Shown here piece by piece: positions 29,832-61,015 of a DNA stretch of 64,000 bases (its first letter is position 1; each line of letters begins with the position of its first letter). A program made the position numbers and the translations under genes. The notes under the pieces were generated by a model. The model did not search any database, had not been told where the DNA came from, and saw only the letters and a program-made list of their open reading frames with translations. Origin of the DNA: Octopus vulgaris (lineage: Eukaryota). The DNA is taken from the NCBI GenBank assembly GCA_951406725.2, contig OX597833.1:42780001-42844000 (forward strand), given 5' to 3'.

Positions 29832-29888
29832 ACCTTCCTCTCTCTCTTTCTCTCCTTCTCTCTTTCCCTATATATATATATATGTATG

Positions 29889-29924
<36 letters not shown>

Positions 29925-29995
29925 TATGTATGTATATATATATATACATATATATACATATATATGTATATATATATACATATATATATTTGTAT

Positions 29996-30070
<75 letters not shown>

Positions 30071-30075
30071 CATAT
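29748..30075. repeat. (CTAT)n, (CT)n and long interrupted (TA)n
   Basis: Direct repeats. Confidence 0.93.
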
Positions 30076-30312
30076 TTAAAATTGAGGATAAAATCTTTAT
30101 AAGAAATTATCAGTAGTTAGCGTGAAAAACCTCGTAAGAGAAAAAATCCGTAAATTTTTCCACTTTGAAAATATTTATTTATATTATATAGAGGTTACTA
30201 CTATTCATAGATACCGCACACTAGGAGGGACCCTTGCGGTCAAAACTAGTAAAATAAACAAAATTGTACCGAATGTAAAACTTCAAAGCAAGTCATTTAA
30301 AAAAAGAATTTA

Positions 30313-30376
30313 GCTACATATCACCTGTGATTTCGCAATTAATGCAGAATATGCATTCTATGCTCATCAGTGCAAC
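30313..30376 (-). ncRNA. Type I hammerhead ribozyme, intact core
   Basis: GUUGCA-CUGAUGA-GCA uag AAUGCA uauuc UGCAUU aau UGC-GAAA-UCAC ag GUGA-UA-UGUAGC; all three helices pair; AUA cleavage triplet. Confidence 0.85.
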
Positions 30377-30533
30377 AAACTCAAGACATATAAGAAAAAA
30401 CATAACATTACAAACCCGACAGCCAACCGTAGAATTCGTCGTAGCATGTACGAACGTTTATCTTTACATATCTATGAAAATGGCGGGCTTATTCGCAATG
30501 CATTTCGGTACGAAATTGCTTACTTGTACATTC

Positions 30534-30586
<53 letters not shown>

Positions 30587-30617
30587 ATATATATATTTAT
30601 TTATACACATAAATACT

Positions 30618-41123: not shown

Positions 41124-41209
<86 letters not shown>

Positions 41210-41228
41210 AAGAAGAAGATGAAGAAGA
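41077..41228. repeat. (TAA)n(GAA)n expansion inside the Penelope RT-EN linker
   Basis: Direct repeat between coding remnants. Confidence 0.95.
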
Positions 41229-42070
41229 ATATTAGACCTAAAATAGACAAAAGAAAATTATTTGGTTCGCCCCTTTCTTTTCCCTTAATAGTAAAAACTA
41301 ATTTAGGTAAAAGATTCCTGTCTCTCCTAGACAAATACTTTTCAGTAACTCACAGATACAGAAAAATATTTAAGAGGCATTCCGTGAAATTATTATATAG
41401 CTGCTGTTCCAATATAAAACGTATCGTTACAGGAGGTTAATACTATCTAGACCCAGGATCCTGTCCACTTGATCAACAATGTATGATTAAATTTGTTAAA
41501 TACGAGGCAGGAGTTACCGCAACGGTAGATGATAATACAATAGATAAGAAGACCTATATTGGATTATGTGAAGGAGAAGTTAAAAATCGCTATGCCAATC
41601 ACATAACCTCCTTCCGACATAAGGACAAAAGTAAAGTTACTAAGTTGGCTAGCCACGTATGGAGTCTGAAATCTAACGCAACACCACATGGGATTAAGTG
41701 GAAAATAATTGAAAAATCCACACCTTATGTTAATGGATCAAATAAATGTAAACTATGATTAGCTGAAAGAGCTCAGATCCATTTCAGATCTAAGATCCTT
41801 AATTCGCTACTGAACTCTAGGCTTGAAATTTTCAGCAGTTGTAAACATATGTCTAAGTATATTTTGCGGAATTGGAAAATTCTGCCTATACCTGATTAAC
41901 TTGTTGATAACTTTCCAGTCTAATAGTTTAAGGTCTAAAGAGAATAACTCTTTTACCTTTTTTTTACTTTTTGGTTTTCCATTTTTAACCTTGCGCGTTT
42001 TCTATATGCTTCCTTCTCAAATTTTCTTGTATTTCTCTCATGAAAAAGTTTTAGTTATGATATGTGGTTT

Positions 42071-51629: not shown

Positions 51630-53055
51630 ATTTGCAAGATTATTTCATTGAGGAAAACAACCTCTTAGATAATACACAGTATGGTTTTCGGACTGAACGT
51701 GGTTGCCTGACACAACTATTACAACACCATAACTCTATCCGCAATAATCTCCAATAAAGTGGAAAGGACACTGAATGCGTACACCTTGATTTTGCTAAAG
51801 TGTTTGACAAGATTGATTATGGAATTATCTGTCATAGAATAAGGAATCTCGGTATCAAAGGAAACTCGGAGAATGACTCTTTGACTTCCTACGAGATAGG
51901 AATCAATATGTTGCTACAAAGAGTTATCTCTCAGCAAAGTCACTCGTAATAAGTGGTATACCTCAGGGTACGATTCTAGGAACATTGTTATTTACCATAT
52001 CCCTATCAAGCATAAACTCACAAGTGCAATTGGCCAACCTAATGAATTATGTCAACGACACCAAAATATCAATGGCTATCCAAACTCCAGAAGTTGCCAT
52101 CACACTCCAAGATGACCTAAATGTTATTTATCAATGGGCTGATAAAAATAATATGATATTTCAGCGCCTTCATTATGGAGGTCGAAAAAGCCAGCTTCTA
52201 TATATGGCTGAAGCGGGAAGACCAAAAATGGCTTGAAAGTCATAACATGCCGGCGGAAAATAACATCACTAGGTTAGACAAGCTGACACTGAATTACCTT
52301 CGCTGACTGACAGGTGACGGTCGTTTAGGGGATGCGTGGCTAAGACTACGCGCCTTCATTGGTCAGTTAAAGTTGAGACAGTGTCACGTGATAACTTGCT
52401 GGGGCTGCCTGCTGGAGGTAGCAGCAGGTATTTAAAGGGAAAAAAAATTGGCAAGACAGTCAGTCGCCCGCTGACACTCGTTGACGCTACATCGAAGAGG
52501 CCAGGGAACAGAAGAAAGAAGAAGAAAGAAGACATGTACCCAACACCAGAGCTGAAGACACCTCCGAAAGGGGGGGGCGCCACGTCAAAATGGTAGAGGA
52601 GTAGGGGCCGAAACTGGACGTGGTTCCTCCTCATGATGTCTTGAGCTAACTGGATACTATAAAGGAGCTGTTGTGGTAGCAGACCACGAAACTTGGTTGA
52701 AATTCCTGCCAGATGACTCATTGATTCAGAGCACTAACGACATGCAGAATTTAGGAATAATCATGTCAAGTGATGCCTCTTTCATCAGTCATATCACCAA
52801 ACTGACCTCTGACGTCTCATAGGGTGGATCCTACGAACCTTCACGACAAGAGAACCGGTAGTTATGCTAACTCTGTGGAAAACATTAATTTTGAGCAAAT
52901 TAGATTGCTGCTTACAGTTTTGGTCTCCAAATTCACCCGTTCTTATAGAAGAAATTGAAGGGTTACAAAGAACATTTACCTGTAAAATAACTTCCGTTAA
53001 TGGCCTTAATTACTGGAAACGTCTGAAAGCTATGCGTCTTTACTCTCTTGAATGC

Positions 53056-57309: not shown

Positions 57310-57344
57310 GTTTCCGACGAAGAGCTCCGCTCGAAACATTAAAC
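57310..57344 (+). ncRNA. Minimal hammerhead variant
   Basis: GUUU-CCGACGA-a-GAGC ucc GCUC-GAAA-CA-UU-AAAC. Confidence 0.6.

Positions 57345-60394: not shown

Positions 60395-60455
<61 letters not shown>
60040..60455. repeat. (CAT)n/(CCT)n compound repeat
   Basis: Direct repeat. Confidence 0.95.
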
Positions 60456-60456
<1 letters not shown>

Positions 60457-60469
60457 GATCGGATTGAAT

Positions 60470-60900
60470 AGGGAAGAGTCGGTGGATCACCTAACAGAAG
60501 TGTACGATTGGTTCAGACGTTTCCAAGGTGGCCGAAAAAATGTCTGTAGTGACGAACGGTCTGGGAGACCCGCAACCAGCAGAACTGAGAAAAACATCTC
60601 TGATGTGCGTGCAGCCGTGAGGGGAAATCGTCGAATCACCACCAGTGAGTTATCAGAGGATGTGCAGATTAATTACAGTCCAGTTCAGTCGATTTGGGTA
60701 TCACTGATGATTTGGGTGTTTGTTAAGTTTGTACCAACACTGCTTTCTGCTGACAACGCACTTGCCCATTCAGCGCAGCTTGTGCAGCAGTTTCTGGCTA
60801 GACACATCATTCCCCAGGTTCAACAGCCTCCGTATTCTCCAGATCTCACCCCTAACAACTTATTCCTCTTTCCAAAAATCAAATCCCGCTTTATGAGGAT
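60470..60900 (+). mobile_element. Internally deleted mariner transposase remnant
   Basis: VYDWFRRFQGGR...DERSGRP...NRRIT...KFVPTLL is joined directly to DNALAH...PPYSPDLTP..LFLFPKIK; the first catalytic D region is missing. Confidence 0.9.
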
Positions 60901-61015
60901 GTTAAAAGACAGGGGAGGTATATAATACATGCTCCTGGTTTATAAGAAGCGTAAGGTTTTTAACTCAGGATAAAAAAATGTAGTGTATTATAAATAAAGA
61001 ATACAAGAGTAAAGA

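Follow-up and report, generated by a model that had tools for sequence, protein, structure and literature searches.

A hammerhead-bearing repeat family of the Octopus vulgaris genome, probably an animal non-LTR retrozyme mobilised by Penelope-like elements

The window, a 64,000-nt stretch of Octopus vulgaris DNA (contig OX597833.1), carries a type I hammerhead ribozyme motif that lies in one copy of a dispersed, non-coding 494-nt repeat. We consider it highly probable that this repeat is an animal non-LTR retrozyme family mobilised by Penelope-like elements (PLEs), and that the window copy is a dead-end, 5'-truncated insertion with a single ribozyme. As to whether the template for such insertions is circular or linear, we see the two as about evenly balanced.

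Results

The hammerhead motif and its predicted fold

The minus strand from 30376 to 30313 forms a type I hammerhead in which the 11 core positions are intact. C3 U4 G5 A6 N7 G8 A9, G12 A13 A14, the A15.1-U16.1 pair and an NUH site are all present, and the GAAA (G12-A15.1) occupies 30334-30331 (Table 1). Helix I pairs 30376-30371 with 30318-30313 (6 bp including two G.U) and, beyond one bulge, gains 6 more pairs up to 30382/30306. Helix II is formed by GCA/UGC plus AAUGCA/UGCAUU, with pair probabilities of 0.86-1.0. For helix III, 4-5 bp had been proposed in the initial annotation; the 4 bp stand, A15.1-U16.1 included, and the fifth pair does not, as it would force an impossible 2-nt loop. The predicted cut, between 30319 and 30318, was placed by the standard hammerhead numbering.

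Table 1 Features of the window copy, its hammerhead and the candidate helper family (window coordinates unless a locus is given).
Feature	Position	Strand	Basis or description
Type I hammerhead with extended helix I	30306..30382	-	30313-30376 plus 6 further pairs
Catalytic core C3-U4-G5-A6-U7-G8-A9	30364..30370	-	sequence
Helix II	30335..30363	-	3-bp base, 3x3 internal loop, 6-bp distal stem, 5-nt loop
G12-A13-A14-A15.1, near-palindromic helix III strand, U16.1	30320..30334	-	sequence and alignment
Predicted cleavage site AUA, A17 = 30319	30318..30319	-	hammerhead numbering
Main arm, covering about 457 of the monomer's 494 nt	30068..30524	-	96.7% to the L002 monomer by blastn, over 457 nt
End point E1, where the window copy passes at its 3' end into (TA)n	30068..30080	-	family ends
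Internal TA-like motif E2, second fixed family end, read through by the window copy	30171..30195	-	family ends
5'-junction stub of 9 nt, an inverted copy of 30449-30457	30528..30536	+	sequence
(TA)n microsatellite target flanking the element on its 3' side	29869..30075	.	sequence
(TA)n microsatellite target flanking the element on its 5' side	30535..30605	.	sequence
Young Penelope-like family with a 781-aa RT+GIY-YIG frame	L141:945-3290 (G000:C16); L037, L050, L056		

The description of a fully formed type I hammerhead, with its core, helices and AUA site, held up against chance. The canonical descriptor matched only once within the whole window, and at equal strictness none of 300 dinucleotide-shuffled windows (both strands) contained a match. 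Relaxing the descriptor to middle strictness gave a match in 1/300 shuffled windows, and at loose strictness the rate was 0.10 per window. No hammerhead family was reported by Rfam for the motif, even at E<=10, and its folding z-scores were modest (-0.75 to -1.4). The window also includes two minimal hammerhead-like motifs, at 57314 (+) and 50044 (-), that combine a CCGA core with a helix III which is palindromic or very short; L047 holds a motif near-identical to that at 57314, so both are likely to come from other repeat families.

Folding with ViennaRNA predicted that helices I and II form with native flanks and that the helix III strand pairs with the CUGAU core. In this model the active fold lay 2.6 kcal/mol above the minimum; the model, which has no core or tertiary terms, put about 0.3-0.4% of the ensemble in that fold and gave a helix III pair probability of 0.01-0.02. 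Dominance of alternative folds had been named at the outset as evidence against the ribozyme, and in ViennaRNA the misfold does win. Since the program ignores core and tertiary contacts, this prediction weakens the case for monomer activity without excluding it. Computed on the L002 monomer, whose letters are identical in the window, the helix III strand forms a self-duplex at -11.2 kcal/mol and a hairpin alone at 0.0. A near-palindromic helix III is a pattern tied to dimeric hammerheads in the available text of PMC4209133.

A family of hundreds of copies with a 494-nt period

The block around the motif had been described as unique. That does not stand: among 2438 first-look genome candidates, all 40 that were scored are 92-100% identical to it over most of its length, and the suggested check of copy number and tandem arrangement returned hundreds of copies, some of them in head-to-tail pieces. 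A 22-nt hammerhead pattern gave 247 exact genome matches (reversed control, 0) and is exact in 24/30 top copies, which together suggest roughly 300 or more hammerhead-bearing young copies. The head-to-tail period is about 494 nt (of 19 tandem pieces, 18 fall at 481-497 nt and the other at 600), and the unit has a GC content of 32%, no ORF and one type I hammerhead. Both its size and its GC content fall within the limits reported for retrozymes (51-972 nt, GC under 45%) in the available part of a preprint (10.64898/2026.07.22.740005). Two tandem hammerhead cores were found in 17/29 distinct loci selected for length and in 5/89 loci from the first 100 listed pattern matches; the latter is the fairer figure, as a count of 0/59 came from a set biased by the exclusion of earlier loci, long arrays among them. 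The family therefore has the two consecutive hammerheads by which the preprint recognises an active element. As a non-coding head-to-tail repeat, it supports the initial suggestion of a retrozyme-like unit.

An older subfamily, 78% identical to the young one, shares its period and its ends. The strict core is intact in 26/29 young and 21/29 older copies, and N17 is A in the former and mostly C in the latter. Between the subfamily majorities, 0/11 core positions differ, a count that is not significant alone, compared with 16/64 at other hammerhead positions and 33/104 upstream; the E2 motif differs at 2/31 positions. The two subfamilies were then aligned, leaving out L014 (a local duplicate of L007) and L105 (hammerhead not found), to give 53 distinct rows in which 91.5% of cells are paired, against 15-43% in slid controls. 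The A15.1-U16.1 pair is invariant (53/53). Compensatory changes between the subfamilies were seen at the helix II base (C-G/U-A) and in the distal stem (A-U/G-C), and this covariation counts as two events between two subfamilies, not 51. Changes in helix I are one-sided and helix III barely varies; 22/53 rows have lost the pair at the base of helix II and, as aligned, 32/53 rows have lost the outermost helix I pair, which is broken in the older subfamily. The retention of core and helices over 22% divergence, with compensatory changes, argues for selection on the RNA fold during spread.

Several loci show features of their own. A U.U mismatch marks the helix II base of one older lineage (L081-L110) and is found alike in the HHR_Amex2 motif as given in PMC7229834. 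L007 and L014 (G000:C8:100868382-100875383) lie 3.5 kb apart with a common 3' flank and a different 5' structure, and represent a local duplication with rearrangement. L113 (C57, a small contig) and L114 (C13, a chromosome-size contig) have identical arm coordinates and are possibly a haplotype duplicate in the assembly.

Insertions have two fixed ends and paired arms

For insertion anatomy we followed the listed order within the first 100 pattern matches (247 in all), excluding earlier loci, and surveyed 59 loci; choosing loci by their hammerhead favours E2 arms. These loci contain 96 arms, ending at E1 (36), at E2 (48) or elsewhere (12), with E1 and E2 about 100 nt apart. (TA)n follows 71/84 of the E1/E2 arm ends, and among the block matches a TA-rich run lies at or just past E1 in 30/30 loci. 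Arms on both strands were present at 29 loci, and in 26 of these an E1 arm is paired with an E2 arm. Most insertions span 0.4-2.7 units with an inverted second arm; an arm is longer than one unit at 13/59 loci, and the arms reach up to 1332 nt. The family shows the Penelope footprint of partial tandem, inverted 5' copy, one-sided tail and microsatellite target, and the first three of these make up the PLE signature in the available text of PMC8557442. By analogy, the E2-to-E1 stretch would correspond to the tail geometry of PLEs, with a tail of ~100 nt; in PMC11167929, as far as available, the tail is delimited by two RT start sites in vitro.

The two arms of a locus resemble each other more than they resemble other loci. 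Tandem duplicate sequence within a locus has 88/2759 differences (about 5.9% between loci) and inverted duplicate sequence 60/1659 (about 8.5% between loci), and rare alleles are common to both arms in 27/138 cases against 1.4 expected. This likeness and the shared rare alleles indicate that both arms come from one source, which fits a circle or a homogeneous multimer alike. The arms also read straight across the predicted cleavage site, which implies a template that had either stayed uncut or been re-ligated. Junctions overlap by 2 nt or more in 17/36 loci. Fold-back, which would leave equal 5' breakpoints in the two arms, was rejected as a general route (6/36 loci against 3 expected).

The window copy is an ordinary truncated member

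The window copy corresponds to monomer positions 47-502; the first ~46 nt are missing, which leaves it shorter than one unit. Its divergence from the family majority is 2.9%, within a family range of 1.4-6.5%. The second G.U of helix I is due to G30314, a letter present in 0/29 other young copies though usual in the older subfamily. The 9-nt stub at the 5' junction stops at monomer position 122, the same point as a 16-nt stub in L003; its chance is about 0.006 per offset, with 7 offsets tried, and it is likely to be a micro second arm. The (TA)n flanks and the lack of an adjacent coding remnant were confirmed around the block as first described, and a target-site duplication is unreadable inside (TA)n.

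Five stop-free frames of the block gave no accepted Pfam domain; the single match was below its cut-off and was rejected. An RT + GIY-YIG ORF, as in autonomous PLEs, is absent from the window copy, and no conserved flank or gene was seen beside it within the window. With only one hammerhead, it lacks the two-consecutive-hammerhead arrangement and fits the inactive monomer class of animal retrozymes in the available part of 10.64898/2026.07.22.740005. A single hammerhead means that it cannot release a unit alone, and it could still cut a read-through transcript. It was initially rated the best candidate in the window for current activity, a rating that finds no support in a copy shorter than a monomer, with one hammerhead and 2.9% divergence. 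As an ordinary truncated family member, it is unlikely to act as a source.

Penelope-like elements and the candidate helper

GIY-YIG elements are numerous in the genome, and in several of them a 781-aa frame is open. We examined 50 loci out of 6136 first-look candidates, and the 781-aa frame that was read scored above the Pfam cut-off for GIY-YIG and just below it for RT. Copies of this family, too, have two fixed ends at (TA)n, reached directly in 9 copies and after a ~38-nt tail in 5. It also has a cysteine-rich linker ahead of the nuclease and a minimal hammerhead of the U3-A8 variant about 1 kb past the ORF. Other variants were seen in L046 and L052, which have U3-A8 hammerheads with GCAA replacing GAAA, and in L051, where a hammerhead-like motif with an A3-U8 core variant was recognised by eye after the GIY-YIG ORF, at about 2030-2060 in the GIY-YIG sense.

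No pLTR homology to the unit was found among the 50 GIY-YIG loci, two of which (L038, L077) contain separate older unit copies, and 21 frames from PLE loci had no significant match to the unit. Without unit homology at these 50 loci, we infer a helper only indirectly. RT or GIY-YIG remnants occur in 5/59 loci with 3.5-kb flanks (L154, L182, L186, L190, L197); they were rejected as a coding parent, being separate insertions of which none is continuous with an arm by coordinates.

Family sequence was also found in contigs of guessed-RNA runs, in which DNA or intron carry-over is possible and which reveal neither ends nor strand nor circles. In 3/3 such runs the contigs have the family letter at position 30314, not that of the window copy, with the proviso that contigs drop rare variants. 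Words sampled from the unit recur in run contigs that bear four different organism labels.

Discussion

The family was compared with the animal non-LTR retrozymes of Cervera and de la Pena 2020 (PMC7229834) and of Li, Clavereau and Pollet 2026 (10.64898/2026.07.22.740005). In the available portions of these papers, retrozymes are likewise non-coding head-to-tail units with one type I hammerhead and low GC, present as dispersed monomers and short arrays alongside autonomous PLEs in the same genome. They differ in unit size, which is 170-400 nt in invertebrates (PMC7229834) and 51-972 nt in the preprint, against 494 nt here. Further differences are the insertions of mostly 0.4-2.7 units with an inverted second arm, the long two-part helix II and the lack of a pLTR homologue among the 50 GIY-YIG loci. 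On its sequence, the family appears to be a retrozyme of already known type, sharing the tested features of animal non-LTR retrozymes. The words ribozyme, hammerhead and retrozyme do not appear in the main text of an octopus repeat annotation (PMC13282606). In the literature we found no paper on cephalopod retrozymes, and supplements or repeat libraries may list the family.

With PLEs that carry pLTR hammerheads (PMC4209133, PMC8557442, PMC11167929, in their available parts) the family shares the partial tandem plus inverted 5' copy, a tail at one end, a (TA)n target and a palindromic helix III. It differs from them in having no ORF and in a tail of about 100 nt as against 30-40 nt. The PLE hammerheads are minimal or of the U3-A8 variant, whereas the octopus unit has a canonical C3-G8 core and a 4-bp helix III.

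In L1 twin priming, two oppositely oriented cDNA arms are primed from both target ends. The octopus family resembles this in its opposite arms and in the overlap at their junctions (at least 2 nt in 17/36 loci). It departs from it in using a single fixed motif for the second priming and in that the arms often cover the same unit positions, which is impossible in one pass over a linear monomer.

A mechanism can be proposed for the PLE-mobilised retrozyme. Multi-unit loci would be transcribed and the hammerhead would cut each unit to give unit-length RNA, a cleavage that is probably assisted by dimer formation, with two palindromic helix III strands pairing, or by protein. The unit-length RNA may then be circularised. 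A Penelope-like RT/GIY-YIG protein would act in trans, nicking (TA)n on both strands, and the two DNA ends would prime reverse transcription, one at E1 and the other at E2. Joining of the two cDNAs would produce a two-armed insertion; the window copy would have obtained its E1 arm and, as partner, only the 9-nt stub. More tentatively, and with less confidence than in mobilisation itself, each insertion may stem from one self-cut, re-ligated 494-nt RNA circle that was read more than once round, with a Penelope enzyme pair priming from both nicked strands at two fixed TA-like sites 100 nt apart. Circles have already been proposed as templates for more-than-unit copies in the available text of PMC4209133, and in that of 10.64898/2026.07.22.740005, 8/9 predicted Xenopus retrozyme dimers showed no cleavage in vitro.

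A rival of comparable, and likewise doubtful, standing differs at the hammerhead step alone and overlaps with the mechanism above: a Penelope-like enzyme would copy uncut read-through RNA, with the hammerhead dispensable or a slow relic and no circle formed. Arms that cross the cleavage site and the misfolded state predicted as dominant by ViennaRNA would suit it, and homogeneous master arrays would likewise give similar arms. For the anole (lizard) PLE, the available part of PMC11167929 reports that unprocessed RNA is the main substrate in vitro and that hammerhead mutants are without effect on insertion in vitro. On the other hand, core and helices have been kept over 22% divergence with compensatory changes, and related coral, mussel and axolotl units yield circular RNA according to the available text of PMC7229834.

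The initial annotation had also offered a solo pLTR, that is, the 3' end of an autonomous PLE cut short in reverse transcription, whose parent, with its ORF, would still be present in the genome. Coding PLEs have the same target, ends and tandem/inverted anatomy, most PLE hammerheads are single motifs of truncated elements in the available text of PMC4209133, and 50 of 6136 first-look candidates is a small GIY-YIG sample. Yet in arms of up to 1332 nt the sequence upstream of a unit is the previous unit and not an ORF, the repeat has a 494-nt period and is absent as a terminal repeat of the 50 GIY-YIG loci, the remnants in 5/59 loci are not continuous with any arm, and the coding PLEs seen bear short variant hammerheads unlike that of the unit. 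We therefore regard a solo pLTR as improbable. Least credible, and very unlikely indeed, is a host-used ribozyme currently active at the window locus, for example in cutting an intron or read-through transcript: the core is intact and helices I and II are predicted to be stable with native flanks, but this is one among hundreds of similar copies with ordinary divergence, with a single hammerhead, a weak palindromic helix III, a G at 30314 that is missing from the 29 other young copies though common in the older subfamily, and no conserved flank or gene seen in the window.

The window copy itself is of little weight. The family as a whole offers countable genomic evidence, in the form of 26/29 two-armed loci that pair the two fixed ends, for Penelope-like mobilisation of animal retrozymes, a route proposed in the papers cited and not shown there mechanistically. 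It also points to two priming motifs and to a candidate helper whose 781-aa frame is open. If the circular template were correct, PLE integration and dimer-gated hammerhead cleavage would both have a natural read-out in this family.

Some smaller features were noted in the window. A motif in the 5' part of the unit at 30476-30487 (+), kept in both subfamilies, is YY1-like and could be part of an internal promoter. Elsewhere, the frames at 41180-41440, 51877-52236 and 60450-60925 look like, and are presumably, remnants of non-LTR RT-like and mariner-like transposons.
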